Source of the DNA: Escherichia phage inny
Sequence record: MN850601.1
Direction: 5' to 3' (one strand)
DNA length: 64,000 nt
Part shown: one piece after another, positions 1 through 20,051 of the stretch
Position numbering within the stretch: position 1 is the first letter of the stretch
Layout: each line of letters starts with the position of its first letter
The notes under the pieces: model-generated
Databases searched by the model: none
Told to the model about the DNA's origin: nothing
Seen by the model: only the letters and a program-made list of their open reading frames with translations
Translations under genes and position numbers: made by a program

Positions 1-2
1 CG

Positions 3-530: not shown

Positions 531-532
531 AA

Positions 533-1270: not shown

Positions 1271-1273
1271 CAG

Positions 1274-1909
1274 ATGGGAATACCATTTGATTTAAAACTT
1301 GATGGTTCTAATGATTTAGTGATGGTGGATGGTGATTTAACACTAACCACAACTAAAAGTGAAATTGCATCACAGACGCTTGGAATAACACTTAGAACTT
1401 TCCGTGGAGAATGGTTCCTCAATTCTAATTTTGGGGTTCCATATCTGCAAGAGATTATTGGTGTTGCCAAGAAGAAAGAGATTGTTGATCGCATTTTCTT
1501 ATCAACTATAGCAAGTAATGTTTATATAGATAATATCAATTCCTACACATCCTCTTATGATAGAGATGATAGGTATTACTCAATGAACGTTACTGTTACA
1601 GTTGGTGAACAAGTTGTTAGTGCTCTATTCAGTACACAGCCGTCTGAAGAATATATCTATCCAGAAGCTGGTGATGATAATGCAGCAATCACTTGTGAAG
1701 CATTTGAAATTGTTGAATCTGCAAATAGACTCTATCGCTTTATTAACATTGTTGGTCTTCCTAAAGATACTTATTCTACTTGGTGGAATGAGTGGTCTAA
1801 CGAGGCATTGATTGAAAAATACCTTGTTAACGAAGCCAATAAAGGTCTTGCAACCAATTACAACTATGCTATAACAGCAACAATGGGAGCTACAAATAAT
1901 AATGGCTGA
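1274..1909 (+). CDS. baseplate wedge protein, gp25/GPW-like N-terminal domain
   Basis: TLRTFRGEWFLNSNFGVPYLQEIIG resembles gp25/W family core; 4-nt gap to spike gene. Confidence 0.45.
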   Translation: MGIPFDLKLDGSNDLVMVDGDLTLTTTKSEIASQTLGITLRTFRGEWFLNSNFGVPYLQEIIGVAKKKEIVDRIFLSTIASNVYIDNINSYTSSYDRDDRYYSMNVTVTVGEQVVSALFSTQPSEEYIYPEAGDDNAAITCEAFEIVESANRLYRFINIVGLPKDTYSTWWNEWSNEALIEKYLVNEANKGLATNYNYAITATMGATNNNG

Positions 1910-2375
1910 TTTAACTACAATCAAGGTGACTGATCTACCTGTAACAACATCTGTTTCAGACACAGATTATTTTGTAACAGATCAATCAGGCATCACTAAG
2001 AAAACATCATTACGTGTTCTTCTTGCGGGTGCTGGTGTTACACGAAATCGTCTTTCTGCAAGGGGTACTGTTACAAATACCCTAGCTTTAGATATTAGCA
2101 CGGCAGAGTATTTCTCTGCCACTTTATCTAGTCCAACTTGCAGTATTTCATTTAGTAATGTTCCAGTTACAACTAACATTGTTCAAAACTTTACGCTATC
2201 CCTACGTCAAGGCAGTGGAGCAAATAAAGTAACGTGGCCTCAATCTGTTAAATGGAGTTTTGGTCGCGCTCCTGTTTTGAGTTATAAACAGGGAGCTACA
2301 GATATTTTTGAATTTGTTAGTTATGATAATGGAGCTACCTGGATAGGTAGTTTAGTGATGGCAGGAGTGATTTAA
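1902..2375 (+). CDS. hypothetical structural protein
   Basis: 157 aa ORF, 8-nt overlap with upstream gene, ATGA overlap with downstream gene; inside baseplate block. Confidence 0.4.
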   Translation: MADLTTIKVTDLPVTTSVSDTDYFVTDQSGITKKTSLRVLLAGAGVTRNRLSARGTVTNTLALDISTAEYFSATLSSPTCSISFSNVPVTTNIVQNFTLSLRQGSGANKVTWPQSVKWSFGRAPVLSYKQGATDIFEFVSYDNGATWIGSLVMAGVI

Positions 2376-5251: not shown

Positions 5252-5259
5252 GGAAAATA

Positions 5260-7335
5260 ATGAAACAGGCTATTTTTACTGTAACTCGAAATACGAGAGT
5301 AAATGCCAGTTCATTCAGCTATAAGACCGTCGATGGAACGGCGGTCGCTGGTAGAGATTATGTAGCTAAACAGGGAACAGTAACGTTCCCTTCTGATGCA
5401 GATTCTGTTACTGTAGTAGTTGATGTATATGAACGTCCGGCAAACTCTTTAGATCTTTATTTTACTCTTGAGATTACTAGCATAAGTCAAAATAACATGA
5501 TGATCAATGAAGAAATTCGTTGTGTTATTACGACTAATCAATCGAATACAACCCCGCTAACTTGGCCTGTTGTGAAGTCTAGAATGTTTGATCCTAAGTT
5601 TTGGACAATAGATTCTCAAGCAACAGAGAGTTGTTCTATTATCTCTAATGGTGATTCTTTCACAGCAAGAATGGTTAATAGGACAGTGGCTGGTCTTGCT
5701 GGGATTATTTGGTCAACTTACGATAAATATGATCACAAAGGATTAGGCTACCAAGAACATTCTGACTTAAGTAAAGAGAAACTTTGGTTTAAAATGGAAC
5801 TTAGTCAAGGTGTTCCTGGATTAAAAGAAGAAAAATTATTGCCATCCTTAACAGTGACACTGAAGGATGAAACAGTTCATTATGTATCTCTAAACTTTTA
5901 TGCAGAAGAAGTTTCAGAGGACGGTAAAACAGCAATAATCAAATTAGATTTCTCAAATTTAAAATCTGGGCCAGAAAATGATATTGTTGTTGACACTACA
6001 CAGATAGATAACATGTTCTTCTCCTTGATTTCCGCAAGGTATCAAGAAATTGAAGATGTTATACCAGTAGACAATATAGATCTTTCCTTTAAGTTTACCA
6101 TACTAGAGCCTGATACTGGTTACAGTATGATGAATATGGGTAATTTAAATGTTCCGGCGCACACCATAAGAATGTGTACATCTTATGATGATATGTATAA
6201 CCTAACCCCAGAGCGAGTTATTTCTAACACCTATAGATTAGGTTATAGAGATATGATTAACCATTATAATGGTATGTCACACTATTATCAATTTAGTTGG
6301 GATGCTGGATCTAATAAATGGGCTTTGAACAGAACAGAATATTTAAACCCAGCAACAGAAGCCTGGTTTGATAATTTCCACGCTAATGCAAAAGCTATGG
6401 GCTACACAGTAATGAACTCCTTAAGTTTTGAAATTATGAGTACAGTGTGTCCTGTAGAATGGGTACAACATACTTGGAATGATGATCTGGCTGCTACAGG
6501 TTATGAGCCACCAAGTTATGTTTTATCTCCTTCAATTGATGAAGGGATGAATTATTTACAAGGTGTAATAAATAAGATAGCTTCTATATCCGCTGCTAAT
6601 GATCTTCCGGTTATTATTCAGGTTGGTGAACCGTGGTGGTGGTATAACACAGCTACCAATCTACCGTGTATTTATGATTATGCAACCAAAGTTGCATTTA
6701 ATAATGAAACTGGGTTATATGCACAAGATGTTGGTACAGTTAAGAATTATAAAACTGGTACACCATATGATGAATATTATGCATTCCTATCTAAAACATT
6801 AGGACTGCGTGTTGCTAAATTTGCAACAGATACTAAATTAGCCTATCCTGGAGCTAAAGTTACATTATTACCATTTGTGCCATCCATTTTAGGTAATGGT
6901 ATGATGGAGTTTGTTAACTTCCCTAAAGATTATTATATCCCAGAAAACTTTGACTTTTATTGTTCAGAATGTTATGACTGGTTGTTGGAAGGTCAGATGG
7001 AAAGATCTTTCGACGCTATTAAAATACCTAATGAGCAACTAGGTTTTAGTTATGATAAGATACATTATCTTGCAGGGTTTGTTCCAGATGCAACTCTAGC
7101 ACCATTATATGGCTTTGATCCTGAATCAGACTACAGAACATATTTGTGGAAAATGATTATAGGTAATATCGTATTGAACGACCAGAAGTTTGTTGGTTTG
7201 TATCAATACATATGGGCTTATCCACAAATTATGGCAGATTCATTAACTGTTCTTAATTCAAAATCCCAAGTTTTTTATATGGGTAACGTACCTCTGAATG
7301 TCTTTTTACAAGATACAGTATATGTTTCTTCTTAA
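5260..7335 (+). CDS. baseplate-associated protein with N-terminal Calx-beta-like domain
   Basis: 691 aa; N-terminus VDGTAVAGRDYVAKQGTVTFPSDADSVTVVVDVYE matches Calx-beta pattern. Confidence 0.4.
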   Translation: MKQAIFTVTRNTRVNASSFSYKTVDGTAVAGRDYVAKQGTVTFPSDADSVTVVVDVYERPANSLDLYFTLEITSISQNNMMINEEIRCVITTNQSNTTPLTWPVVKSRMFDPKFWTIDSQATESCSIISNGDSFTARMVNRTVAGLAGIIWSTYDKYDHKGLGYQEHSDLSKEKLWFKMELSQGVPGLKEEKLLPSLTVTLKDETVHYVSLNFYAEEVSEDGKTAIIKLDFSNLKSGPENDIVVDTTQIDNMFFSLISARYQEIEDVIPVDNIDLSFKFTILEPDTGYSMMNMGNLNVPAHTIRMCTSYDDMYNLTPERVISNTYRLGYRDMINHYNGMSHYYQFSWDAGSNKWALNRTEYLNPATEAWFDNFHANAKAMGYTVMNSLSFEIMSTVCPVEWVQHTWNDDLAATGYEPPSYVLSPSIDEGMNYLQGVINKIASISAANDLPVIIQVGEPWWWYNTATNLPCIYDYATKVAFNNETGLYAQDVGTVKNYKTGTPYDEYYAFLSKTLGLRVAKFATDTKLAYPGAKVTLLPFVPSILGNGMMEFVNFPKDYYIPENFDFYCSECYDWLLEGQMERSFDAIKIPNEQLGFSYDKIHYLAGFVPDATLAPLYGFDPESDYRTYLWKMIIGNIVLNDQKFVGLYQYIWAYPQIMADSLTVLNSKSQVFYMGNVPLNVFLQDTVYVSS

Positions 7336-7346
7336 GGATCTCTAGT

Positions 7347-7592
7347 ATGAGAAAATTTTTAATAGGTATGTTTTGTACATATCCTGATAATAAAGTCAGT
7401 TCTACTAAAGTTTGGAATGCTATTGGTATGATTGTTATGTCCAGTATGTTTATTTATTTGGGAATTGATAAAGAAATTCCTGAGTGGATGGGCTGGGCTT
7501 TTGTTTTTATGATCACACCATCCAGACTAATGAAGAATTTAATAGATTTACGTTGGGGCAGATCACCTGCCCCTGATAAGGAGGATAACTAA
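7347..7592 (+). CDS. small membrane protein
   Basis: 81 aa, two hydrophobic segments; ATGG/TAATG coupling to downstream J-like gene. Confidence 0.35.
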   Translation: MRKFLIGMFCTYPDNKVSSTKVWNAIGMIVMSSMFIYLGIDKEIPEWMGWAFVFMITPSRLMKNLIDLRWGRSPAPDKEDN

Positions 7593-9079
7593 TGGCAGAT
7601 TATGGTTTAACAGATGCTGGTTTTGTCATTCCAACGTTTGATGATATTTTAAATAATTATATGACAGCATTGAAAAACACTTTTGGTGCAGATACAGCTA
7701 CATCTGAAGATACTGTCTTTGGTCAACTGTTTCGTATTATTGCATATACAGATTACACCCTTTGGGAAGGTATGCAAGGTGTTTACAATACCCAAACCTT
7801 AGATGGTGCAGAAGGTATTTACCTTGATGAAATTTTCTCTAAGAGAGGTTTTTATCGTAAGGCAGCTTCTGCTGGTAGTGGTTATGCTTATGTTAAATCT
7901 AACAATAAGGCAGCTTGGACTTATGAACTAAGCACCGATGTTTATTTTAATGCCGATAACGATTTGACATATTATGTCAGTGCACCAACAATGTTGAATG
8001 CTAAGATTGGAGCATATACCATTTCTAAAGCAAACGCAACAGCTTCTGGTGAAACTTCTATTACTTTCTACATTCAAAGTGCTATTGACGGTGGTCTTAA
8101 CAGTAAAACACTAAGTCCTAGCAATACAAACTTTATTTTAGATCTCACGAATTTCATTAAAGCTAACGTATCAACAACAGATCGTGCTTTAGTATGGAAT
8201 GATGCTAGTAATGTTTACATGGGTTATAATCCAGAAGATAATGTTAACCCAATAGGTCTAGTAACACCAGTGAAATTTTACGCATCTATTGCAATTGGTA
8301 CAAAATGGAGTGAAATTCCAGTTACGTGTTCAGACGTTGGTTATAATCCAGTAGGTACAGAAAGTATTACAGGTATTTCTTCAACGTTTACAGGCTTTTT
8401 AGATACAGGTAACTTCTACCCATTCTCTCCAGGTACGGATGTTGAAACAGATGCAGAATTCCGTTCTCGTTTCAATGATAATATGGATGAAGCTAATGCT
8501 GCTACTCGTGCTGCTATTGTTAAAGCTCTGCTACTGACAGATGGTGTGACAAAGGTTAAGATTTATGATAACCCTACATTACATGATCAGGAACATGCTC
8601 CAGCTATGACATTCCAGACTATTGTGTATGGCGGTACAGCAGAAGAAGTTGCACAGGTTATTTATAATACTAAGCCTATTAACACCTTAACCTATGGTAC
8701 AACAGCAATTACTATTATAACAGAAGACGGCGGTCAAGAAGTAATTCGTTTTTCTCCTGGTGACAATGCTGAATATTCACTTAGACTAGTATATCAAACT
8801 GGCAATGGTAGTGTGTTAAGTACAACAGAAAGAGAAAATATTGTTTCTGCTCTTTCAAATCTACAGGCTTATTTTGAGCTAGGGTCAACAGTAACTAACG
8901 ATCAGATAAAAGGTGTAATTTATTCTGCACTTGCGTTCGGACGCTTGACTTCTCTCCGTGTTTATGTTAAACTTAATACTGAGGATGACAGTAAATATAA
9001 TGAGGGAGATATCACTCCAGCGTACAATGTTGTACCATCCTTTGACCTTGATAATATTTCCTACGAGTACGGAGTCTAA
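7592..9079 (+). CDS. baseplate J-like protein
   Basis: 495 aa; N-terminal GLTDAGFVIPTFDDIL...FGAD...LWEGMQGVY pattern typical of Baseplate_J/gp47 family; followed by I-like gene. Confidence 0.6.
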   Translation: MADYGLTDAGFVIPTFDDILNNYMTALKNTFGADTATSEDTVFGQLFRIIAYTDYTLWEGMQGVYNTQTLDGAEGIYLDEIFSKRGFYRKAASAGSGYAYVKSNNKAAWTYELSTDVYFNADNDLTYYVSAPTMLNAKIGAYTISKANATASGETSITFYIQSAIDGGLNSKTLSPSNTNFILDLTNFIKANVSTTDRALVWNDASNVYMGYNPEDNVNPIGLVTPVKFYASIAIGTKWSEIPVTCSDVGYNPVGTESITGISSTFTGFLDTGNFYPFSPGTDVETDAEFRSRFNDNMDEANAATRAAIVKALLLTDGVTKVKIYDNPTLHDQEHAPAMTFQTIVYGGTAEEVAQVIYNTKPINTLTYGTTAITIITEDGGQEVIRFSPGDNAEYSLRLVYQTGNGSVLSTTERENIVSALSNLQAYFELGSTVTNDQIKGVIYSALAFGRLTSLRVYVKLNTEDDSKYNEGDITPAYNVVPSFDLDNISYEYGV

Positions 9080-9081
9080 AA

Positions 9082-9711
9082 ATGGCAGTGAGTGTTGACC
9101 ATGTGACAACGTGGGATAGTATCAATGAAGATGTTAAAGACCTACTGATTGAAGATTTTAAATCTTCTCCGAACATTGTCAAACTACTCTATATCATTTC
9201 TAGCGAAAAACAAAAGATAGATCAGGCAATGATCTATCTTGCCAAACACCGCTTGATCTCTACTGCAACTGGTAAGTATTTAGATCTTATTGGTGAAGAG
9301 ATGGGGATGGAAAGAAATGGTGCTACAGATGAAGAGTATCGTACAATATTAAAAATCAGGGCTTATCGTGTTGCGTCTTCTGGTACGCGAGATGATATCA
9401 TTGATATGTTCGCTCGTTTTACAGGAACAGAAAAAGAAACGATCAATACATACGTTGGATTAAATAAAACATTCGACGTATTCTTTTATAATTTGTGTCT
9501 ACAATCCGATCAGGCAGTAGCACAGTTACTTAACGTTTTCCCGATCCTAAGTAGTTATCGCTTAGGTGCGAAAGCGGGTTCAGCCTTTGGTTTCACTTCC
9601 TATTATGCCACAACTCCACCTCATGGCATAGGTGGTTTAGGTTCTCTTTACACAGAGGCTGAAGGAGATGATACAGGGCGAATGACTATGCTGATAGCTC
9701 AAATAGAATAA
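9082..9711 (+). CDS. baseplate/tail protein I-like
   Basis: 209 aa; follows J-like gene in canonical order; segment YLDLIGEEMGMERNGATDEEYR resembles gpI-like tail proteins. Confidence 0.5.
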   Translation: MAVSVDHVTTWDSINEDVKDLLIEDFKSSPNIVKLLYIISSEKQKIDQAMIYLAKHRLISTATGKYLDLIGEEMGMERNGATDEEYRTILKIRAYRVASSGTRDDIIDMFARFTGTEKETINTYVGLNKTFDVFFYNLCLQSDQAVAQLLNVFPILSSYRLGAKAGSAFGFTSYYATTPPHGIGGLGSLYTEAEGDDTGRMTMLIAQIE

Positions 9712-9724
9712 GGAGTTACCCTTA

Positions 9725-10705
9725 ATGGCAAAGCCACAATACTACCCTGACTGGGCGACACAAACAGTAACCCTCCCAGGAACGGGAAACACAAACAAGA
9801 TTAGACCAAAAGAAACCATCCGTAATGTTGGTATGGACTTTGGTCAGATTATGACTTGTGAAGAAATGAACTGGATCTTAAACAATATTGGGTCTTGGAT
9901 TCGCTATATGCAAGATGAATTCTTCCCAACATTGCCTACTACATATCTTCCTATAGTCGGTACTAAAATTACAATGGCAGGTGATGCTACAGGTGAAGTT
10001 ACATGGAATGGTAATGCTGCTGTAACATTATCTATTCAAGTAGTAGATAACAGTCATAATCACTTATCAGCTAACATTACAGACGCAACATCGAACCAAG
10101 TTGTAGGAAATGTCCTTGTTAAGCGTGATAATGGTGGTGCTATCTATGCAGGTGATATTTACACTTGTGGTACAGGTGCTACAGATCCTGCAACATTATT
10201 TTTTAGAAACTATAATGGACAAACAGTAGGCAATATGTCTTCTGAACCAGGTGCAGGTGGTCAACTCTATATTTATAGAATAAATCCATCTACTGGAGGA
10301 ACATCTTGTGGAGTCCGTTTGTATGATGCAGGTTATGTTTTAATAGACAATCCTCGTTCTAATTCTGGTCAAGATACTGGCAATGGTAATGCTCTTGTAA
10401 GATTAGATTATCTTAACTCAAGACTAAACTCATTGCAAAGTACACTGCAAAATAATATTAACAACGTTAATAGCAACTTGCAAGGCCAAATTAATAACAT
10501 TAACAACAGAGTTTCTTCTGTTGTGTCTTCTATCCGTCTAGGTACACGTATTAAAGCTGGTGTATCTGAATCTCCTTTCTATGCTGGTCACGTGATCACA
10601 GGTTGGGGTTTTGGTGATAAGAAAGAACTTCGTGGTGCTTGGTATTGGTCTGCTCCGCTACAATATTACATTAATGGTAGCTGGATAACAGTAACCAACG
10701 TTTAG
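9725..10705 (+). CDS. tail fiber protein (short)
   Basis: 326 aa after J/I genes; Asn/Gln-rich coiled segment NNINNVNSNLQGQINNINNR; followed by Tfa-like chaperone gene. Confidence 0.5.
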   Translation: MAKPQYYPDWATQTVTLPGTGNTNKIRPKETIRNVGMDFGQIMTCEEMNWILNNIGSWIRYMQDEFFPTLPTTYLPIVGTKITMAGDATGEVTWNGNAAVTLSIQVVDNSHNHLSANITDATSNQVVGNVLVKRDNGGAIYAGDIYTCGTGATDPATLFFRNYNGQTVGNMSSEPGAGGQLYIYRINPSTGGTSCGVRLYDAGYVLIDNPRSNSGQDTGNGNALVRLDYLNSRLNSLQSTLQNNINNVNSNLQGQINNINNRVSSVVSSIRLGTRIKAGVSESPFYAGHVITGWGFGDKKELRGAWYWSAPLQYYINGSWITVTNV

Positions 10706-10717
10706 TAAGGAGAACAC

Positions 10718-11269
10718 ATGAAAAAAGATGTTATTTACACTGGCTTTGAACTATATCAACCAGAATTGACAGAAGAAAATGTCATCTATCTTTCAATAGG
10801 TGCTGGTTTTCTTAAAGATAAAGATGGTAATGATTGGTACGAAATTCAGAAATATTTATCCAAAAATTACCCTGATGCCTATTTCTTAACTCTAGATCAC
10901 AACAATGTAGTTGTTGCAGCTACGAAAGATGTTTCTACATATTTTCCCGCTGGTCTTACTGTTCTTGTAACATACAATGTTCCAGATAAAATAGAAGAAG
11001 AAAGCAACCTAGGGTCGTGGAGATATGACAATGGTAAGTTTATTTCTCATAATGGGTTTGCAATAGAAGATGCCAACCTTAAAATGGAAAAAGAATTAAC
11101 TTGGGCCACAAATCAAATATCTGCAATTCAAGATTTAGAGGAATTACAAGGTTTATCTGAAGAACAAAAAGATTGGTTAGGAAAAGTTAAACTCTATCGT
11201 GCAACATTAATTCAAATTAACGTTGAAGATGCACCTAATATAACTTGGCCTACAAGACCTAAGAAATAG
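10718..11269 (+). CDS. tail fiber assembly protein (Tfa-like)
   Basis: 183 aa; C-terminal KLYRATLIQINVEDAPNITWPTRP resembles Tfa family C-terminus. Confidence 0.5.
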   Translation: MKKDVIYTGFELYQPELTEENVIYLSIGAGFLKDKDGNDWYEIQKYLSKNYPDAYFLTLDHNNVVVAATKDVSTYFPAGLTVLVTYNVPDKIEEESNLGSWRYDNGKFISHNGFAIEDANLKMEKELTWATNQISAIQDLEELQGLSEEQKDWLGKVKLYRATLIQINVEDAPNITWPTRPKK

Positions 11270-11278
11270 GGGCAATGT

Positions 11279-11620
11279 ATGGAGCTAACAGAAGTATGGG
11301 ATATCGCTAAAGAGGCGATTATCCCTCTTATTGGCGTAATCTGGGTGGTCTTCAAACAGAAGATAGATGATATGGCAAGTGATTTGGATAAAATGGAAGA
11401 CAAATACCGCGAACTAGAAAAGAAGTTGGTGTTTGTTGAATCCACTTATGCTACCAAAGCAGAACTTGCTCAAATGCTTAACCAGATCAACTCTACATTA
11501 ATGGCAAATAATACTGCCTTAGAACAGAAGATTGAAAAAATAATGGATTTAAAAAATGCTCCTGTTCAATTAATGCTAGAGGAGATTACAAAGCGCACAC
11601 AAAGTAAGGACAAAAATTAA
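11279..11620 (+). CDS. hypothetical protein, N-terminal hydrophobic helix plus coiled coil
   Basis: 113 aa; IIPLIGVIWVVF helix then heptad-like charged region; ATGG overlap with next gene. Confidence 0.4.
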   Translation: MELTEVWDIAKEAIIPLIGVIWVVFKQKIDDMASDLDKMEDKYRELEKKLVFVESTYATKAELAQMLNQINSTLMANNTALEQKIEKIMDLKNAPVQLMLEEITKRTQSKDKN

Positions 11621-14034
11621 TGGCGAATTTTCCAACATATCCTGCTACGACACTAGAACAAGGTGTTGATCTGGTTATATTCTCGTCTAACCAGATGCAT
11701 GATGTTATTAATGGGGATGCTACAGCAACTGTAGAAACCGAAACAGGTTTAATACCTACACTGCGTAAAGCACTTGTTGATAACTTCTTCTTTAAGAGTC
11801 CTGTTGCTTGGTCAGCAGGATCAACTGAAACTGTATTTAACCAGTTACGTTATTTTGAAAACGGTATCTTGAGTGGGTACTATTATGCCCCATCTGCCAC
11901 TACTGCGAACCCTGTACCTATGCAGGGCACACCTGTAGGGGACAGTAACTGGACTCTGTACGCTCTTAAAACTGAACAGTTAGCTTCAGATGTGTATCCT
12001 TGGTATTTTAAAGGTGCTACAGGATATGAAACAGAAATCAGTCCTCCTTATATCTTTGATAATGCTATTGTCACCATTAACGGTGTAATTCAGATTCAAG
12101 GTGAAGCATTTACTATCAAAGATAGTAAAATTATTCTGGCAGAACCATTAGGTTTAGATCCGTCTACTGGTCTACCTAACAAATTGTTTGCTTTTATTGG
12201 TAAAACAACAGCCTCTACTTCTTACGTAGAGAAAAACCTTTTGTCATCTACCACTGGTGCAGCAATGGTTGGTCTTCCATCTGGAGGCAACCTGTTACAA
12301 GCTCAATACTTTGTAACGCCTGAGCAGTTTGGTGCAATTGGTGATGGAGTTACCGATGATACTCAAGCAATTTTAAAAACTATTACTTTCGCTAACACGA
12401 ATAACATTCAAGTACGTGCAGATAAGAATTATAGATTCACAAGCTCAATTGCTATGTCTGGTATTCGTTGGTATGGTGGTACATTCACTGGTAACGGTGG
12501 AACAATGATTTCTACTGTGTCCTGTTGGATGGAAAACGTTCGCTTTGAAAAATGTTATGTTAAGATGTTAGGTGGTGATTGCCGATTCTATCGTAATATC
12601 TTCTCCAACGCAACATCTACAGCAGCATTCTTAATGCAAGCAATGACAAGTGAAGGTACGTTGGACTTCAGTTACAACGAAATGTATGGTTGTAAATATG
12701 CGATCCTGCAACAAGGTACTGGAGAAGTAATGACCTACGGGCGTTACTCTAACAACTATATTCACGATATTAAAGGTGATGCTATTGAACTTAACGTAGT
12801 TCAAAAACACTACACTGAAGGTTTGATTATCGAGAATAACCACATTGCTAACGTAGATGCTTCTGGACAAGGGGCAAACTGGGGTATTGGTATTGGTGTA
12901 GCAGGTAGTGGCCCATATGGTGTTGATGTTCCTGATTCACAATATGTACGTAACTTCAGTATCGTTGGGAATAGGGTTTACAATTGCCGTCAATGTTTAC
13001 ACGTTGAAATGGGTAAAAACTTCACAATACGTGATAATGAAGTTTATCCTAACACAGCAGTTTCAACAGGTACAGGTTTAACTACTTGTGGTGTTGCATT
13101 ATACGGATGCCAAGATTTTGAAGTTGATGGTTTAACTGGTTATCTGCTTAATGATCCGTCTGTTTCAACACGCATGGTCTTTATTGATTGGGGTGTTAAC
13201 AGTGGAAGATATGCGGGGCCACCAATTAACTTTACAATTAAGAATTTGGATATTCCAGAATCCTCAATTGAGATTGCAACCTCTGGATCAGATGCTTGGG
13301 AAAACTCTACAATTGTTAGTAATATCAATTGTAATGTTTTTAAATGGCGTGGGCTACCATCTAGCTCTACTTTTAATAATATTCGTTGCCGTAGTATTGA
13401 CTTTATTGGTCAACACGGAAGCGGAGAAGGAAGTGGTGGCGGTTTCTATACTCGCAGCCAATTCACGTATATGAAGTGGGTAGGATGTACAGCACTTAGC
13501 GGAGATGAAACAACAGTTTCTTTTGCTAAAATCTACACTGATCGTTGCGATCAGGTTGGAAATAACTTTGGTGTTCCAACTGCTGTTGATGGTACAGGTC
13601 ATCGTGGGCCAGTTTTAACTACTATTTCTGAACAATATTTTACAGCTTATGATGAATTCCCAGGTGGGCGTGAATTCCCTACTGGAACAGTTATTCATTG
13701 TGCAAGCGGTAAAAAACATGTTGTTACAGTAGGTGGTGCTTTCTTTAGTGCCAACGAGAAAATAAAAGCAACTGTTACAGGTCAAACCTATCTACAGTCT
13801 AATGCTTTAAACTGGGCTAGTAATGGCTACGCTAAAGCAGCAGGTACTAAAATTGTTATTCCAGGTGCAGGTGCAAATGGCGGCGATCTTGTGACAACTA
13901 TAGCACGTGCTACATACGTGACAAATAGTTTGTACACAATAGATATTGCAGATCCAATTGTAACACCTACAGCAGAGAATACACAAATTAAAGCTCTGAA
14001 TCCTGTTACTTTTGTTACTGTCAACAATGCTTAA
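11620..14034 (+). CDS. tailspike with right-handed beta-helix (pectate-lyase-like) domain, putative depolymerase
   Basis: 804 aa; FGAIGDGVTDDTQAI motif typical of pectate lyase superfamily beta-helix proteins; repetitive beta-rich body. Confidence 0.65.
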   Translation: MANFPTYPATTLEQGVDLVIFSSNQMHDVINGDATATVETETGLIPTLRKALVDNFFFKSPVAWSAGSTETVFNQLRYFENGILSGYYYAPSATTANPVPMQGTPVGDSNWTLYALKTEQLASDVYPWYFKGATGYETEISPPYIFDNAIVTINGVIQIQGEAFTIKDSKIILAEPLGLDPSTGLPNKLFAFIGKTTASTSYVEKNLLSSTTGAAMVGLPSGGNLLQAQYFVTPEQFGAIGDGVTDDTQAILKTITFANTNNIQVRADKNYRFTSSIAMSGIRWYGGTFTGNGGTMISTVSCWMENVRFEKCYVKMLGGDCRFYRNIFSNATSTAAFLMQAMTSEGTLDFSYNEMYGCKYAILQQGTGEVMTYGRYSNNYIHDIKGDAIELNVVQKHYTEGLIIENNHIANVDASGQGANWGIGIGVAGSGPYGVDVPDSQYVRNFSIVGNRVYNCRQCLHVEMGKNFTIRDNEVYPNTAVSTGTGLTTCGVALYGCQDFEVDGLTGYLLNDPSVSTRMVFIDWGVNSGRYAGPPINFTIKNLDIPESSIEIATSGSDAWENSTIVSNINCNVFKWRGLPSSSTFNNIRCRSIDFIGQHGSGEGSGGGFYTRSQFTYMKWVGCTALSGDETTVSFAKIYTDRCDQVGNNFGVPTAVDGTGHRGPVLTTISEQYFTAYDEFPGGREFPTGTVIHCASGKKHVVTVGGAFFSANEKIKATVTGQTYLQSNALNWASNGYAKAAGTKIVIPGAGANGGDLVTTIARATYVTNSLYTIDIADPIVTPTAENTQIKALNPVTFVTVNNA

Positions 14035-14037
14035 TTA

Positions 14038-14060
14038 AAAAGGGGCGAAAGCCCCTTTAT
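14038..14060 (+). terminator. rho-independent terminator
   Basis: AGGGGC-GAAA-GCCCCT hairpin followed by TTTAT, directly after tailspike stop. Confidence 0.6.
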
Positions 14061-14075
14061 AAAAGGAGTAGTAAA

Positions 14076-16037
14076 GTGATTTTAACACGTCCAAATAGTG
14101 CCATTGCAGACATGGTAGAGTCTCGCTATAGAAAGCGTAGAAGTTTTGCAAGTGGTTTTACCTTAAGAGATGCTCGTGAAGCATTGCTCTTTGAAACTGA
14201 CGGTAACTACTATCAGTGGAAAGGTTCTCTACCTAAAGTTGTACCTGCTAACTCTACTCCTACATCTACTGGAGGGATTTCAGATACAGCTTGGAAAAAT
14301 GTGGGTAATGCAGATGACATTGCTCAAATAGAATCAGAATTAGATGCTATTGAAGCTGAAATTGAAGATCTTAGAGAATCCATTCCAGAAGCTGGTAAAT
14401 CAGCTTACCAGATTGCCGTAGACAATGGTTTCCAAGGTACTGAGACAGACTGGTTGGCTTCTTTAAAAGGTGATCCAGGTGCTCCATTAAAGCTGCTAGG
14501 GACGCTATCTAATACCAACCAATTACCTACAACTGGAAACAATGCAGGAGATGCATGGATTGTAGGCGAGAATATGTATGCTTGGGATGGTACTGCTTGG
14601 AGAAAAGTAAACTCACAGGGGCCAGAAGGTAAATCAGCTTATCAAGTTTGGCTTGCAGCAGGAAACCAAGGTACAGAACTAGATTATCTTGCTTCAATTA
14701 AAGGTGATAAAGGGGAGCCTGGCCCAGAGGGGCCACAAGGTGTGCCAGGTAACAATGCTAATGGTTTTGATTACCAAGGTGCAGCTAATTCCGTTTCAGA
14801 TCTTCCTTCTGCATCTCCTGGAAACACATCTCAAGCATGGAGTATTGGTACATATCTATACGTGTCAAACGGTGTAGAATGGATCAATATGGGTGCTATA
14901 GTGGGGCCAAAAGGAGATAAAGGCGACAAAGGAGATAAGGGTAACACTGGTGATTCAGCTTATCAAGTCTGGTTAAATGCTGGTAACGTTGGTACTATTG
15001 ACGAATATATTGCCTCTCTGAAAGGAGAAAAAGGTGATAAGGGAGACAAGGGTGATCAAGGTGAGCAGGGTATACAAGGCTTGACGGGGCCAACTGGTGC
15101 AGGGTTGACCATTATTGATATTCTGACTGACACTTCTGAACTACCAGGAACTGGAGAAGATGGTGATGGTTATCTGATCAATAATGAACTTTGGGTTTGG
15201 TTGCAAGGAGCCACACAGTGGACAAATGTTGGTCGTTTAGCTGGTACTCCAATCACTGCAAAAGGACACGTTGCATCTGCAAGTGCACTTCCTCCTACAT
15301 CCAATTACGGTGATGCTTATCTGACGGAAGATACAGGTCATCTTTACATTTACACCTATGATGAACAAACTCAAACTGCTGAATATGTAGATATGGGTAG
15401 TTTGAAAGGTGATAAGGGTGAGAAAGGTGACGCTGGTACTAACGGTACGGATGGCGCAACTTGGATTGTTAAAACAACAGATCCAATCTCTAGGGATGGT
15501 AAACAAGGGGATTATGCCTTTAATATCTCCACTGGCGAGGTGTTCTTAAAAACATCTGCAACTGTCTGGACTTCTCAAGGTACACTACCTAGCATCACAG
15601 ATGCACCTAGTGACGGTAAAATCTATGCTCGTAAAGATGGAGCATGGGAAGAACTCACTAGTTCTGTAGATGGTCAAGATATAGTTCCAACAAAAGTAAC
15701 AACTAATTTTATAGAGGTTACAGCATACACCAACAACTCTGTTACAGGGGACTGGACACCTCCAGGAACACATAACATGAATGTGTTGAATCTTACTGGT
15801 AACTCTACTATAAAAGCATGGCCTGGTGTCGAAGATAGCACAAAACCTAAACCATTCTCTGCAATAGTTTATCTTATCCAAGATGCCACTGGGGGTCGTA
15901 CTGTTACTTTAGACCCATCTTACAAAGTAATTGGTTCTAGTGATATTAATACAGATCCTAACGGAGTAACAATACTACAACTAACATATTGTGGTGTTGG
16001 TGATTACGTGGATGCTATTGTTGCTAAACGCACATAA
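14076..16037 (+). CDS. tail fiber with collagen-like G-X-Y repeats
   Basis: 653 aa, GTG start with AAAAGGAG RBS; runs GDKGDKGDKG and GEKGDKGDKGDQGEQGIQGLTGPTG; threefold repeat of SAYQ(I/V)..(N/D).G.QGTE.D(W/Y)LAS(L/I)KG. Confidence 0.65.
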   Translation: MILTRPNSAIADMVESRYRKRRSFASGFTLRDAREALLFETDGNYYQWKGSLPKVVPANSTPTSTGGISDTAWKNVGNADDIAQIESELDAIEAEIEDLRESIPEAGKSAYQIAVDNGFQGTETDWLASLKGDPGAPLKLLGTLSNTNQLPTTGNNAGDAWIVGENMYAWDGTAWRKVNSQGPEGKSAYQVWLAAGNQGTELDYLASIKGDKGEPGPEGPQGVPGNNANGFDYQGAANSVSDLPSASPGNTSQAWSIGTYLYVSNGVEWINMGAIVGPKGDKGDKGDKGNTGDSAYQVWLNAGNVGTIDEYIASLKGEKGDKGDKGDQGEQGIQGLTGPTGAGLTIIDILTDTSELPGTGEDGDGYLINNELWVWLQGATQWTNVGRLAGTPITAKGHVASASALPPTSNYGDAYLTEDTGHLYIYTYDEQTQTAEYVDMGSLKGDKGEKGDAGTNGTDGATWIVKTTDPISRDGKQGDYAFNISTGEVFLKTSATVWTSQGTLPSITDAPSDGKIYARKDGAWEELTSSVDGQDIVPTKVTTNFIEVTAYTNNSVTGDWTPPGTHNMNVLNLTGNSTIKAWPGVEDSTKPKPFSAIVYLIQDATGGRTVTLDPSYKVIGSSDINTDPNGVTILQLTYCGVGDYVDAIVAKRT

Positions 16038-16039
16038 TC

Positions 16040-16065
16040 AAAGCCCCTTCGGGGGCTTATTGTTT
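16040..16065 (+). terminator. rho-independent terminator
   Basis: AAGCCCC-TTCG-GGGGCTT hairpin followed by ATTGTTT. Confidence 0.55.
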
Positions 16066-16076
16066 AAGGAGATTAA

Positions 16077-18896
16077 ATGTATCCTATTCCTTTATTTATG
16101 TCAACAACATCAGCTTCAGTAGTAACAGCTACATCTATAACTACTTCCTCTATTGGTATTGCAATAGTTGGTGGTAAAAAACAACTGACATACACAGTTA
16201 CACCGGAAGATGGTGCATTATTTGATATAGCTTTTTCATCTTCAGATAATACCAAAATGGTTATAGATAATAGTGGTATGATGGAGTTTGTTGCCGAAGG
16301 TGGTTTTGATGCAATAATGACAGCTAAAAATAATTTAGGTGCTGTCTTAACTGATCAATCTGGTGGTTATGCTTCAGAATTAAGTGTGTACACTGAAAGT
16401 CTATCGGCTATGGATGTAGGCACTACTCAACAGTTGGTTGCTACAATCAGTCCAGAAGGTGCTAAAGACCTTCCAGATATGGTAATTACATACACCACAA
16501 CAGATCCAGAAGTAGCTACTGTAAGCCCTACAGGGTTAATAACTGCTCTTAAAGATGGCGGTTGCCGTATAGGTTGTACTGCAACGTATCAAGGAACAGT
16601 TGTGGCCTCTGATAGTTCTTATTTAGGTGTTAATGCTATTCCTGTTATTTCTAATGTAACAGCCGTGGCAAACAGCTATGGAGACGTTCGTGTTGCTTGG
16701 GATGTAACTGATCCTCTAGATGGTGATACTTATACTGTAGAAGTATTAGATTTAAGTAATAATAGTGTTCAGTGGACTACAACAACCACGAATACTCATG
16801 CTTACTTTGATATCTCTGACTCTATTCCTCTTTATGGGTTTGCTCCAACATACCTTAAAATTAGCGTTAAGAGCACCAAAGCAGCAGCCGTTATCTTTAA
16901 TAACTCAATAGCTACAGATGATTCGTTCATTAAAGAAGTTATTGTCTTTGCTGGACAAGATAACGTAAATGCACACTTTACAGAACTATCTGGTGCAAAT
17001 AAAGCAGCAATGGGTAGCACAACAGCCCGTAATGCATATGCTACGCAACGTGGTTTAGCAAATGCTGAAGTTCTTCCGTTAAATACAGCTTCTGGATCAT
17101 CAGCAGCAGATAAATATGCTGACGATAAAGCTGGAACAGGTACACCAGATAACTACTGGTATGATCTGGATAACACAGCAGATGGGCCATGCTTAACTAA
17201 CTTTATCACTAAAGTCACACCTTATGCAAGTAAGGTTAAAGCAATTATTTGGGGACAAGGTGAAAATGATGCTGTATCAGCATCTTCGACTGTTGCAGGT
17301 AGGTACAGTAACACTACACGTTACCATGATGCTACGATAGCTATCTTTGATAAGATGCGTACAATAGTTCCTGCTTCTCAAGCAAAAATTGTTTGGCAGA
17401 TCCTAGGACGTTCTTATTTATATGGTGTAGAAGTTAATGGTGTGGATTGGCAGAAGTACAGAAATGTACAAAGAACCATCTCTACAGCACGTGATGATGT
17501 TATCATTGGTTCTTGGGTAGATGGTGCTGAACGTTACAGTGGTTATGTTTATGAAGAAGGTATTGATGGTCGTATCCATTATATTTCTTCTGTATACCAA
17601 ACAGCAGCTACAAAACTTGCTAAATCAGCAGCAGACGGTACAGACTTAACATCAACGTCACCTGTTTGGGTTGATATGGCTGTTCCAACTGGAGCAACAG
17701 CTACTTCCCAACCTAATCAAGATACAATTTTAGCATGGGATGCTCAAGGCTATAGTAAACACTACTTCCGTAATATTAACGTCTTAACCGCATCTGTATT
17801 AACTGAACAAACGCTTAATACGAACAGTTATACGTTTACCTATGCAGATCAAGTAGAACAATATGGTTTTGCAGCAGGAACTACTATATTTGATGTTGCA
17901 TATTATGACGAAGCAAATGATGTGTTATCTCCTTTAGTACGTTTTAATGTTAACGTTACAGCAGGAACCGTAGAAGATAAACCTGTCGTGATGGACTATG
18001 ATTTGACGCAAGAAACTCTTCCATCAGATGTTAAGGTTAATGGTGGGAACTCTTTTGCTCGTGCTTCTGGAGATATACTTGTAGCCACTAACACCTTGGT
18101 TGCTCCGTTGGAGTATGTTGGTAATACCCCTGTAGGTAGACGTGTAACAGCTAACACAGCTTCACAAATTTTTGTCAACAACGCCTTAACAAGTGCAAGC
18201 CCGTGGGTAAAGACCAACTTAACTGTTGCAGCTTCATCTGATAAATCTCCGGCTGGAACTACTGCCAATGTATTCAAATTAACTCCGACTACAACCTCTG
18301 GTAGTCATATCTTAACTGCAACATATACTAACGCGTACAACATATCTGCCGGACGTAACTGGTCTGCCTCTGTTTTCTTGAAAGCAAACGGGATTACTAA
18401 GGCCAAACTAAGATTAAAAGCAGGAACTGAAGTTAATGAGGGTACTTTTGATTTAGCAGCAGGTACATTCACAGGAAGTGAAGCTAATATTATATCTATG
18501 GGCAACGGTTGGTATCGTGCTATTCTGCATAAAACAGGGATAGCCAAACAGTCCTTCATAAGTTTTGAAATAATTGCCTTGGATGCAACTGGTGCGGAGA
18601 TTTTCGCTGGAGATGGTACTAGTAACCTTGCAGTTTGGTTGCCACAGCTTGAAGGTGCTTCTACAGGAGAAACATCAAAAGCTGGATCGCCTTATGTCTG
18701 CACATATCCTGGAAATTTAGGAGGAGTATCCTTCACTATACCAAGGAACGGACATACTGGTGTGGATGTTTACTATTCCAACGGAGACGTTGTTCGTGAC
18801 GTATTCTCTGGTACGGCATCTACTTGGACAATAAACTACTCCAGTTTGTACGATTGGGGATCAGTCTTTATTACAGGTTTGAAATATTACGACTAA
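16077..18896 (+). CDS. tail spike/fiber with Ig-like domain and SASA/SGNH-type carbohydrate esterase-like domain
   Basis: 939 aa; Big_2-like segment (TYTTTDPEVATVSPTGLITALKDG); esterase-like VIVFAGQDNVNAHF and IIWGQGENDA. Confidence 0.6.
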   Translation: MYPIPLFMSTTSASVVTATSITTSSIGIAIVGGKKQLTYTVTPEDGALFDIAFSSSDNTKMVIDNSGMMEFVAEGGFDAIMTAKNNLGAVLTDQSGGYASELSVYTESLSAMDVGTTQQLVATISPEGAKDLPDMVITYTTTDPEVATVSPTGLITALKDGGCRIGCTATYQGTVVASDSSYLGVNAIPVISNVTAVANSYGDVRVAWDVTDPLDGDTYTVEVLDLSNNSVQWTTTTTNTHAYFDISDSIPLYGFAPTYLKISVKSTKAAAVIFNNSIATDDSFIKEVIVFAGQDNVNAHFTELSGANKAAMGSTTARNAYATQRGLANAEVLPLNTASGSSAADKYADDKAGTGTPDNYWYDLDNTADGPCLTNFITKVTPYASKVKAIIWGQGENDAVSASSTVAGRYSNTTRYHDATIAIFDKMRTIVPASQAKIVWQILGRSYLYGVEVNGVDWQKYRNVQRTISTARDDVIIGSWVDGAERYSGYVYEEGIDGRIHYISSVYQTAATKLAKSAADGTDLTSTSPVWVDMAVPTGATATSQPNQDTILAWDAQGYSKHYFRNINVLTASVLTEQTLNTNSYTFTYADQVEQYGFAAGTTIFDVAYYDEANDVLSPLVRFNVNVTAGTVEDKPVVMDYDLTQETLPSDVKVNGGNSFARASGDILVATNTLVAPLEYVGNTPVGRRVTANTASQIFVNNALTSASPWVKTNLTVAASSDKSPAGTTANVFKLTPTTTSGSHILTATYTNAYNISAGRNWSASVFLKANGITKAKLRLKAGTEVNEGTFDLAAGTFTGSEANIISMGNGWYRAILHKTGIAKQSFISFEIIALDATGAEIFAGDGTSNLAVWLPQLEGASTGETSKAGSPYVCTYPGNLGGVSFTIPRNGHTGVDVYYSNGDVVRDVFSGTASTWTINYSSLYDWGSVFITGLKYYD

Positions 18897-18897
18897 T

Positions 18898-18928
18898 AAA
18901 AAAGGAGCCATTAGGCTCCTTTTCTTTT
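18898..18928. terminator. bidirectional terminator at structural/early block boundary
   Basis: GGAGCC-ATTA-GGCTCC hairpin flanked by A-run upstream and T-run downstream; sits between convergent genes. Confidence 0.6.
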
Positions 18929-18931
18929 ATC

Positions 18932-19363
18932 TTAATCAGTGAAAATTACGCTTACATCTTCTTTAGAGAAGAGTTTATGATCTTCACCTTTTGTCTCAAG
19001 AGTTTCATACAGGTTAAGAAGTTCTGAAACATCTTTCTCTACCAGTTTCTTCAATGTTGCAATTTTCTGTTTGCGACTCTTAATACGTTCAGCTACAACC
19101 TTACGCTGGTATCCGGCAGTACGATAACCTGAGAAAGTTACACCAGTGAGACTTGCAGTTACAGGATCGTAGTGACGTTCAATCTGAAACTTATTAAAAG
19201 GTACAGCGTCATCACGAATAATCTTACCGCCATTACTTACCTGACGAAGACCAGTAACTTGTTCCAGTCGTGCCATAGAAATCTTTGGAGACAGACCAGA
19301 GTCCAGGTTCATACCGTTGTTAATCAGTGCTTTCAGGGTGATTTTGCTGTTCAGTGTACTCAT
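18932..19363 (-). CDS. hypothetical protein
   Basis: 143 aa; GGAGG RBS located inside 3' end of upstream MTase gene, 44-nt overlap. Confidence 0.45.
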   Translation of the reverse strand: MSTLNSKITLKALINNGMNLDSGLSPKISMARLEQVTGLRQVSNGGKIIRDDAVPFNKFQIERHYDPVTASLTGVTFSGYRTAGYQRKVVAERIKSRKQKIATLKKLVEKDVSELLNLYETLETKGEDHKLFSKEDVSVIFTD

Positions 19364-20051
19364 TTAGTCGTTCCTCCGCTTGCTTAAAAATATTTACATC
19401 GGCTTCACAGCCTAAGTATTCTCTACCTGTTAAAAGTGCCGCAACTTGTGTTGTTGCACTTCCAGAGAAGAAGTCTAAGACTACATCTCCTTCGTTGGTG
19501 TGTATATTAATAAGGTCACAAAACAAAGTCAAGTGTTTTTGTGTTGGATGAAAACGATCTGCTCCTTGATAGATAGGATACTCAAACACACCCTTATGGT
19601 AGGAAGCATTGAAGGTTGGCTTCGAACCTTTAACACAAACAATAGCCATCTCTTTAGCGTTACTAAGATAGTTAACACCACTGTTGATGGGTACAGGGTT
19701 TGTTTTAATCCATTCGATAGTACGGAACATACGAAAACCAAGCGGTTCAAGGATTTCACGTAGCTCCTGGATCTTCCAGATATCATACCAAACTATGCAA
19801 GTACCACCTTTTCTAAGCACCCTGTAGGCTTCTTTGAATACTTCTTTAAAATAAGGAATATCTACAACATCCCAATCACCGAAGTTGTAAGATACACGGA
19901 ATCTATCCGTATCTTTTCCAGTAGGCTCTCCAGACTGAAAATTTGTGTCACGAGAAATAGCATATGGTGGGTCAGTAAGAATCAAATCTACACTATTGCT
20001 TTCGAGGGTTTGCAGGTAGTTTAATGCAGTGTTGTTTACAAATTCGCTCAT
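19320..20051 (-). CDS. DNA methyltransferase (amino-MTase; N6-adenine or N4-cytosine)
   Basis: N-terminal LILTDPPYAI (DPPY motif IV) and C-terminal VVLDFFSGSATT (FxGxG motif I); no adjacent restriction gene seen. Confidence 0.8.
   Translation of the reverse strand: MSEFVNNTALNYLQTLESNSVDLILTDPPYAISRDTNFQSGEPTGKDTDRFRVSYNFGDWDVVDIPYFKEVFKEAYRVLRKGGTCIVWYDIWKIQELREILEPLGFRMFRTIEWIKTNPVPINSGVNYLSNAKEMAIVCVKGSKPTFNASYHKGVFEYPIYQGADRFHPTQKHLTLFCDLINIHTNEGDVVLDFFSGSATTQVAALLTGREYLGCEADVNIFKQAEERLNEYTEQQNHPESTD

Follow-up and report, generated by a model that had tools for sequence, protein, structure and literature searches.

Gene content and relatives of the module

The window considered here is the whole stretch of 64,000 nucleotides of Escherichia phage inny DNA (record MN850601.1), and its segment from 9725 to 18896 holds six genes, all on the plus strand. 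A sequence-only reading had proposed four receptor-binding proteins in series, accompanied by a chaperone, and all five are present on that strand where it placed them. The six genes are not chance open reading frames, because the block is kept at at least 95% identity in 56 phage records.

9725-10705, plus strand: gp147 ortholog, short tail fibre (fibre III), 326 aa, 99.1% identity to phi92 gp147
10718-11269, plus strand: gp148, tail fibre assembly chaperone, 183 aa, 100% identity to phi92 gp148
11279-11620, plus strand: gp149, 113 aa, 99% identity to phi92 gp149
11620-14034, plus strand: gp150, colanidase tailspike by homology, 804 aa, 99.6% identity to phi92 gp150
14076-16037, plus strand: gp151, collagen-like, foldon-containing fibre, 653 aa, 97.9% identity to phi92 gp151
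16077-18896, plus strand: 939-aa modular protein, long allele of the gene fragmented as gp152/gp153 in phi92

Further components of the host-recognition apparatus lie just upstream, outside this segment:

1902-2375, plus strand: gp140, fibre component
2375-5251, plus strand: gp141, fibre component
5260-7335, plus strand: gp142-like protein, 691 aa, with Calx-beta, NCTSP_N and TIM-barrel domains, related to N4 gp64/gp65
7592-9711, plus strand: gp145 (Baseplate_J) and gp146 (DUF2612), baseplate wedge and fibre attachment (wedge assignment, PMC13450770)

The window is of the Justusliebigvirus type, with 98% identity to phi92 over 20 kb. The proteins gp147 to gp151 are 97.9-100% identical to those of phi92 (collinear DNA, 98.7%), and their order and strand are preserved, adjoining the wedge genes gp145/gp146. 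The gene order of the Phapecoctavirus ESCO37 also matches. Judged by these orthologs in phi92 order, the segment is a phi92-type (Justusliebigvirus) tail-fibre module, and the region is very probably the distal half of the baseplate and host-recognition module of a phi92-like myovirus with several different host-binding proteins per baseplate.

Phi92 (Stephanstirmvirinae) shares with the window gp147-gp151, the upstream gp140, gp141 and gp142-like genes, and the wedge genes. The two differ in the last gene, intact here and fragmented in phi92, and in the endosialidase gene gp143. The gp143 slot is empty in the window: it is absent between 7315 and 7352, and the phi92 locus 8315-11259 has no counterpart. 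The endosialidase forms the tip of fibre I and is specific to phi92 itself, this slot varying within the genus; because ESCO32 likewise has no gene at this position (PMC10269720), gp143 is not genus-defining. The closest relatives of the window are phiWec187 (99.0% DNA identity over window positions 1-20000) and, grouped with it, KMB37, PaulScherrer/Bas60 and alia. PhiWec187 has the same gene boundaries, the same empty gp143 slot and the same long allele of the 939-aa gene, with point differences only, whereas in PaulScherrer and KMB37 extra genes fill the gp143 slot.

The multi-fibre design of the window is real, but the phi92 apparatus is already known; Schwarzer et al. reportedly described it in 2012 as a multivalent “Swiss army knife” of several co-displayed host-binding proteins. 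The branched apparatus aimed at several surface glycans that had been predicted from the window is the one published for phi92 (PMC13450770, PMC8594841, PMC5380687), and the co-display of the fibres on a single phi92 virion comes from cryo-EM (PMC13450770, PMC8594841). Four proteins in series is too low a count, given gp140, gp141 and the gp142-like protein of the N4 gp64/gp65 type just upstream.

Short tail fibre, chaperone and gp149

The gp147 ortholog (PHROG 4465, tail fibre, E 6e-109) contains 11.0% Asn, including 10 Asn within residues 241-270, and its residues 225-270 form an Asn-rich coiled segment. Starting 12 nt past the end of gp147, gp148 matches Caudo_TAP (PF02413; E 3.2e-11, with 43.9 bits exceeding the cut-off of 22.1) and PHROG 136 (E 4e-44), which bears out the predicted pairing of an Asn-rich short fibre with a Tfa chaperone directly downstream. 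Residues 2-72 of gp147 match the N-terminus of the phiTE short tail fibre (PDB 9CUY, E 1.7e-11), which docks on wedge 1 (PMC11972413). Cryo-EM identifies gp147 as fibre III of phi92, with a role in triggering (PMC13450770), and near-identity to this studied protein strongly supports the same role here. Folded with the help of gp148, gp147 would form a downward-pointing short fibre that binds a wedge protein, and its rearrangement would accompany sheath contraction. The 113-aa gp149, which the earlier reading had omitted, has a hydrophobic N-terminal helix and a coiled coil (PHROG 15210, labelled “lipoprotein”); its stop overlaps the start of gp150.

Colanidase tailspike gp150

aa ~12-126, plus strand: baseplate-docking N-terminus, match to the phiTE long tail fibre N-terminus (9CUY)
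aa 180-804, plus strand: enzymatic body, near-identical to PDB 6E0V (phi92 gp150)

The tailspike had been predicted to be a depolymerase, and this assignment stands: gp150 corresponds to a protein whose colanic-acid hydrolase activity in phi92 is cited in PMC13450770, and it also matches TSP_Ig-like (E 2e-14) and PHROG 6117, colanic acid degradation (E 5e-270). The pectate-lyase-type signature did not reach significance: the match to Pect-lyase_RHGA_epim has E 0.037 and scores 14.3 bits, below the cut-off of 27. The fold assignment rests on near-identity to the solved 6E0V; a GenBank note gives a “phi29 gp12-type” fold.

Docking is suggested by the match of aa 12-126 to the phiTE long tail fibre (PDB 9CUY, E 9.4e-18) and by the ESCO37 counterpart, in which aa 1-212 are 75% identical and the body only 32%. 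Both gp147 and gp150 share their N-terminal docking domains with phiTE tail fibres (the short and the long one, respectively), but the distal parts of the phiTE fibres are unrelated to the window; in phiTE, a flagellotropic phage, the long tail fibre is an extended beta-helical fibre and not a colanidase. Near-identity to studied proteins strongly supports gp150 as a trimeric tailspike that would hydrolyse colanic acid, docked through its conserved N-terminal domain. On the phi92 baseplate gp150 and gp151 have no settled place, and AlphaFold3 models did not fit fibre II (PMC13450770).

Collagen-like fibre gp151

aa 11-77, plus strand: Tail_spike_N (Pfam E 3.6e-21)
about aa 80-105, plus strand: coiled coil
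aa 507-528, plus strand: foldon-like motif (Pfam Fibritin_C), match to the T4 fibritin foldon
aa ~526-653, plus strand: C-terminal domain

The collagen-like character claimed for gp151 is confirmed by a Collagen match above cut-off (PF01391; E 7.7e-8, 32.4 bits against 27.2) and by four G-X-Y runs of 6-9 triplets each (aa 210-227, 277-294, 317-343 and 445-462). Because these runs are short and interrupted, they represent collagen-like segments rather than one long helix. The protein, assigned to PHROG 15437 (tail fibre), would thus appear to be a trimeric fibre of collagen-like triple-helix segments and foldon-like hairpins ending in a small C-terminal binding domain.

The same foldon-like motif and collagen-like segments resemble those of fibritin-type fibres, and a GenBank note on phi92 describes the gp151 N-terminus as a potential capsid-binding domain, so gp151 could instead be a whisker-like head or neck fibre rather than a receptor-binding fibre of the baseplate. 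This location is improbable. The CBA120 and G7C tailspikes, which are bound to a baseplate or an adaptor, use the Tail_spike_N domain, the extra tailspike gene in the PaulScherrer gp143 slot contains a stretch 35.6% identical to gp151 aa 23-102, the gene is flanked by two baseplate-module genes, and the phi92 literature counts gp151 among the tail fibres (PMC5380687).

Stem-loops and gene spacing

14039-14058, plus strand: GC-rich stem-loop after gp150 (MFE -14.7 kcal/mol, z -3.4)
16041-16058, plus strand: stem-loop after gp151, terminator-like in the scan (MFE -13.3 kcal/mol, z -2.4)
18900-18923, no strand assigned: strong stem-loop after the 939-aa gene (MFE -15.4 kcal/mol, z -4.0)

The proposal that the genes are separated by terminators holds for the last three (gp150, gp151 and the 939-aa gene) and fails for the packed genes at 9725-14034, between which there is no hairpin and the gaps are 12, 9 and -1 nt. 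All three stem-loops are rich in GC. The first has a GGGGC-GAAA-GCCCC core followed by UUUAUAAAA, and was missed by the terminator scan because its U-tract is weak. The second reads AAGCCCC-UUCG-GGGGCUU. The third, with a 10-bp stem, is the first-listed terminator-like site in the scan and lies between convergent genes, where the end of the structural module meets the end of a minus-strand gene (18932-19363).

Architecture and relatives of the 939-aa protein

16134-16634, plus strand: two Big_2 Ig-like domains, aa ~20-186 (Big_2 E 1.6e-13; pLDDT about 90)
16929-17636, plus strand: SGNH/SASA-fold domain, aa ~285-520
18204-18896, plus strand: C-terminal CBM-like beta-sandwich, aa ~710-939, long allele only

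The last gene of the module encodes, in order, two Big_2 domains, an Ig-like domain, an SGNH fold, a second Ig-like domain and a CBM-like beta-sandwich; the structure model is of moderate confidence (mean pLDDT 69.8). The Ig-like domains predicted earlier are borne out (Big_2 match), whereas the description of the protein as a spike does not suit a multi-domain arm of Ig, enzyme-fold and CBM parts that is related to N4 gp65 and not built as a trimeric spike. The Big_2 module is conserved and common to RCC1-type Phapecoctavirus proteins (55-74% identity to their Big_2 regions). A domain similar to the CBM-like tip occurs in the baseplate wedge-2 protein of Pa193. The long 3' extension is present at at least 95% in 20 phage records, and muut carries a short allele of 628 aa. 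In phi92 the gene is dispensable, being fragmented there, and because of this fragmentation the protein has never been studied; phi92 is the sole phi92-like phage imaged by cryo-EM in the literature searched, and it has no intact copy.

At its centre (Ig-like, SGNH, Ig-like) the protein shares homology with gp65, the non-contractile sheath and receptor-binding protein of N4 (PDB 9LC0, 9YF4; profile E 1.6e-34, Foldseek E 1e-23). Of the two SGNH-like copies in N4 gp65, the first has Ser (GES) aligned with the nucleophile position, which is Asp in the window protein; in gp65 no counterpart of the N-terminal Big_2 pair or of the CBM-like tip was identified. N4 gp64 and the NCTSP domains of gp65 are matched by the upstream 691-aa protein, and other phages fuse both parts into one protein. 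In N4 the module belongs to a podovirus sheath, in contrast to the myovirus baseplate of the window, where it is split over two genes. A full gp65-type sheath protein was considered and rejected for the 939-aa product: NCTSP_N and TIM-barrel_NCTSP reside in the separate protein at 5260-7335, and only the SGNH/Ig part is common. Modules are also shuffled, the central one being fused in other phages to wedge proteins (Mu gp48) and to gp142-like fibre proteins.

Esterase or glycan-binding arm

The SGNH alpha/beta fold that had been proposed is present in the model, but the esterase-like half of that claim is not sustained: Pfam SASA (PF03629) in the 939-aa protein stays below its gathering threshold (15.1 against 24.8 bits, E 0.017, block III only), and the block I serine is absent. 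Block I reads FAGQD295N in the window and in all close relatives, placing Asp295 at the position of the nucleophile, where 58 of the 76 aligned domain copies from relatives have Ser and most relatives read GQSN. SGNH esterases of the SASA/CE6 type (1ZMB, At4g34215 2APJ, NanS 3PT5) also carry the GQSN serine. The removal of O-acetyl groups that had been attributed to the protein is thereby not supported.

An esterase that acts through Asp295 or another residue of an unconventional active site, with the O-acetyl groups of colanic acid or O-antigen as a plausible substrate alongside gp150, is unlikely but has some points in its favour. Block III (WGQGEND, aa 392-398, with the GxND motif) and block V His501 are retained, a clade reaching down to 44% identity conserves Asp295, the colanidase gene gp150 stands two genes upstream in the same block, and colanic acid bears O-acetyl groups. 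Given this conservation Asp295 may serve some function, possibly a catalytic one. Besides the replaced serine and the low SASA score, His501 is Gln in the close relatives P0032 and P0033, and SGNH esterases are not known to use an Asp nucleophile. Slightly less likely still is a reading in which the 939-aa protein sits on the virion away from the baseplate, as a decorating or accessory Ig-domain protein comparable to Hoc or to the Ig-like domains in major tail proteins, and helps the phage adhere weakly to mucus or environmental glycans. The Big_2 domains do resemble the PHROGs labelled “structural protein with Ig domain” and the Ig-like C-termini of major tail proteins in siphoviruses, neither a trimerisation nor a baseplate-anchor motif was found in the protein, and phi92 can dispense with the gene, which in muut is shortened; yet it is the last gene of a baseplate/fibre module that is syntenic across Stephanstirmvirinae, and both its central module and its tip have their counterparts in baseplate wedge or fibre proteins (Mu gp48, gp142-like and Pa193 wedge-2).

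The 939-aa protein is probably an accessory, glycan-binding arm without catalysis. The Big_2 pair would be a conserved attachment or spacer module, followed by an N4-gp65-type SGNH domain minus its nucleophile serine and then by an optional CBM-like tip, and the whole would probably raise avidity for surface polysaccharide rather than deacetylate it. More tentatively, the gp142-like and 939-aa proteins could together be the N4 gp64/gp65 glycan-recognition device in a split form carried by a myovirus, its SGNH domain turned into a lectin-like pseudo-enzyme (Ser to Asp) with a swappable CBM tip; such an extra receptor-binding arm, lost in phi92, might contribute to recognition of NGR or another surface glycan.

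Receptors and significance

Genetics on relatives point to the receptors of the window phage. PhiWec187 does not infect nfrB, waaG or waaF mutants, and the phi92-like phages of the BASEL collection require wecB/nfrB and the LPS core; the terminal receptor would be the LPS outer core, and the primary receptor on K-12 the NfrB-dependent NGR glycan. It is established that phi92-like phages owe their unusually broad host range to the multi-fibre design, which is also of relevance to host-range engineering. What the window adds is the closing gene of the module, the one studied least, intact here and in about 20 sequenced relatives and broken in the type phage phi92; those relatives are therefore where it should be studied. 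Some GenBank records label proteins of this type “tail carbohydrate esterase”, a label that probably misleads, since the sequence lacks the catalytic serine.

Organisation of the fibre module

Six closely packed genes on the + strand, each preceded by a GGAG-type ribosome-binding site, occupy positions 9725-18896 of the window and encode proteins of 326, 183, 113, 804, 653, and 939 aa. The first five are orthologs of genes of the type phage phi92 and carry its gp numbers here.

Genes of the fibre module
9725-10705, + strand: gp147, short tail fibre; 99.1% identical to the phi92 protein
10718-11269, + strand: gp148, chaperone; 100% identical
11279-11620, + strand: gp149; 99.1% identical
11620-14034, + strand: gp150, tailspike; 99.6% identical
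14076-16037, + strand: gp151, collagen/foldon fibre; 97.9% identical
16077-18896, + strand: 939-aa protein; matched in phi92 by fragments only, gp152 (aa 1-198) and gp153 (aa 335-628)

The block as a whole is at least 95% identical to 56 sequenced phage genomes, and the matching phages belong to the genus Justusliebigvirus (subfamily Stephanstirmvirinae). Over positions 1-20000, the closest is Escherichia phage phiWec187 (99.0%), and phi92 is about 98% identical. A sequence-only reading had proposed that several receptor-binding proteins form a branched adsorption apparatus here. Every element it named lies within 9725-18896, and its central inference is both correct and already published, because the multivalent apparatus of phi92 is in the literature. 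The module is real and its outline was read correctly, yet it is not new: deposited genomes match it at 99% identity, and the idea goes back to 2012, when the multivalent adsorption of phi92 was reportedly described (Schwarzer 2012). In phi92, several tailspikes and fibres are co-expressed on one baseplate, an arrangement likened to a Swiss army knife (PMC8594841, PMC5380687, PMC11984140).

The genes had also been described as separated by terminators, which is true of the distal part of the block only. Stable GC-rich hairpins follow gp150 (-14.7 kcal/mol), gp151 (-13.3 kcal/mol), and the 939-aa gene (-15.4 kcal/mol), the first two with weak U-tracts; upstream of these, the genes gp147-gp150 adjoin or overlap, with no hairpin between them.

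Short fibre, tailspike, and collagen-like fibre

The short fibre gp147 is rich in Asn, as predicted (11%, with 10 Asn within residues 241-270), and gp148 scores above the Caudo_TAP threshold, in keeping with a Tfa-type chaperone. In a 2026 cryo-EM study, fibre III of phi92 is gp147, attached under the wedge protein gp145; it rearranges alongside sheath contraction (PMC13450770), and gp147 is shown to be the fibre whose rearrangement goes with contraction. The chaperone gene (10718-11269) exists in two alleles: the proteins of phages PaulScherrer and muut are only 81% identical, though gp147, which gp148 should serve, is still 98-99% identical in both. Two small predicted membrane proteins are encoded within the baseplate and fibre module, namely gp149 (11279-11620), with a hydrophobic helix, a coiled coil, and a stop codon that overlaps the gp150 start, and gp144 (7347-7592; 81 aa; PHROG "membrane protein").

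The tailspike gp150 had been read as pectate-lyase-like and a likely depolymerase. Its match to a pectate-lyase-type HMM is not significant (E 0.037), but the enzymatic role stands: gp150 is assigned to the PHROG "colanic acid degradation", residues 180-804 are near-identical to phi92 gp150 as crystallised (PDB 6E0V), and experimental characterisation of this colanic-acid-degrading hydrolase (PMC13450770) shows that it depolymerises colanic acid. Compared with Phapecoctavirus ESCO37, residues 1-212 are 75% identical and the enzymatic body only 32%, the usual pattern of receptor-binding proteins. The parts of the short and long tail fibres of phage phiTE (PDB 9CUY) that dock on the wedge and sheath initiator match the N-termini of gp147 and gp150, respectively, which supports direct baseplate attachment of both.

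The expected collagen-like fibre is gp151 (653 aa), which exceeds the Collagen threshold and contains four G-X-Y runs. Its N-terminus is a Tail_spike_N domain (E 3.6e-21), and the motif ITDAPSDGKIYARKDGAWEELT matches the foldon of T4 fibritin. From this composition, gp151 would be a trimeric collagen/foldon fibre whose small binding domain lies at the distal end; that it belongs to the head or neck instead is quite improbable. Neither gp150 nor gp151, as modelled by AlphaFold3, fits fibre II of phi92 (PMC13450770). The foldon motif is near-canonical at 15594-15659 (aa 507-528), and, on visual inspection, several weaker foldon-like hairpins seem to alternate with the collagen-like runs.

The 939-aa protein

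The domain layout of the last protein of the module was taken from an AlphaFold2 model with a mean pLDDT of 69.8.

Domains of the 939-aa protein
20-186: two Big_2 domains (pLDDT about 90)
190-277: Ig-like domain
285-520: alpha/beta domain
541-626: Ig-like domain
630-744: linker, poorly modelled
745-938: C-terminal beta-sandwich

The Ig-like domains proposed for this protein are confirmed (Big_2, E 1.6e-13). For the central domain, proposed to be SASA/SGNH esterase-like, the SGNH fold holds; the SASA match is sub-threshold (E 0.017), and the esterase assignment fails at a defining residue, as the nucleophile position of block I is Asp (FAGQD295N). Because word-indexed searches returned only 6 matches to the SGNH domain and 4 to the C-terminal domain, the family was sampled by an exhaustive HMMER scan of 1.84 billion cluster representatives. 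In that scan, 58 of the 76 aligned domain copies have Ser at this position, and Asp is essentially limited to the clade of the 939-aa protein. Fused N4-type homologs have GQSN. Asp295 is common to all close relatives and to a sister clade (GGDN; about 44% identical), which rules out a sequencing error. Block III (GxND) and His501 are kept, and the His is replaced by Gln in some relatives.

A PDB search with the single sequence of the central part gave no match at E up to 10; a six-sequence profile found N4 gp65, a non-contractile sheath and receptor-binding protein. In three homologs (P0037, P0043, P0044), a gp142-like protein carries this central module as a fusion, and in a Mu-like tail module it lies within a Mu gp48 wedge protein (P0036). 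RCC1-repeat proteins contain the Big_2 pair too, at 55-74% identity, and in Phapecoctavirus one of them is likewise encoded by the final gene of the fibre module; the CBM-like tip directly follows Big_2 in P0114 and is C-terminal in the RCC1 proteins. From these fusions, the module belongs at the periphery of the baseplate. In the metagenomic Mu-like tail module (L006, 7631-11152), a 1173-aa protein joins a Mu gp48 wedge domain, NCTSP_N, SGNH with GQSN intact, and an NCTSP TIM barrel, a complete N4-type enzyme set built into a wedge protein; a fibre gene and then a chaperone gene lie 3' of it.

Sequence and model together argue for a non-catalytic, multi-domain glycan-binding arm. An active but unconventional esterase, which would retain block III and His501 and use Asp295 or another residue in place of Ser, is unlikely. 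It is still less probable that the protein is an Ig-domain decoration protein located away from the baseplate, the site to which the module fusions point.

Within the genus, the gene occurs as a long allele of 939 aa (20 records at 95% identity or more), a short one of 628 aa (e.g., muut), and in fragments in phi92. There (L003, 19984-21646), gp152 and gp153 are remnants of the gene. Residues 1-198, 273-335, and 335-628 are each encoded in a different frame, and nothing corresponds to the final 949 nt. phi92 therefore lacks the protein, which marks it as accessory and explains why the gene escaped study. It is likewise ruled out as fibre II, as phi92 has no intact copy. Virion proteomics that include the protein or a homolog were not found in the literature: the mass-spectrometry data on rV5 include only the homolog of the short fibre, and a paper on O177 phage "proteomics" reports computation alone. 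No paper analysing the gene was found in the literature, and some database records already carry a label for it from structure-based annotation pipelines, either "tail carbohydrate esterase" or "non-contractile tail sheath". The loss of the SGNH nucleophile and the relationship to a split N4 gp65 may be the new part.

Upstream genes and receptors

The module extends upstream of the proteins first named, to gp140, gp141, and a 691-aa gp142-like protein with Calx-beta, NCTSP_N, and TIM-barrel domains; this protein is related to N4 gp64 and gp65. The variable gp143 tailspike slot, which holds an endosialidase in phi92, is empty in the window (7315-7352), as in ESCO32 (PMC10269720). PaulScherrer and KMB37 carry other genes in it. 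At the empty slot, the gp142-like protein stops after 691 aa rather than 719.

BASEL phi92-like phages (PMC8594841) and phiWec187 require the LPS core (waaG, waaF) and NfrB/WecB, which points to the NGR glycan as the primary receptor on K-12. Going by the genetics of these relatives, the NfrB-dependent glycan would be contacted first on K-12, probably by the gp142-like protein; the terminal receptor would lie in the LPS outer core, with gp147 as the putative binding fibre.

Other features of the window

No tRNA genes were found in the 64-kb window. The sign of the GC skew flips at about 18900-20000, between the + strand structural module and the minus-strand replication genes, and a strong hairpin separates the convergent genes. 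The minus-strand ORF 22251-24830 (859 aa), which is in the DNA polymerase position of relatives by synteny only, has no intein, as in KMB37; the PaulScherrer ortholog contains one. Four records named "Campylobacter phage" (MG065639, MG065656, MG065689, MG065645) are about 97.5% identical to the coliphage module over 17-20 kb, and their listed host, Campylobacter jejuni, looks doubtful.
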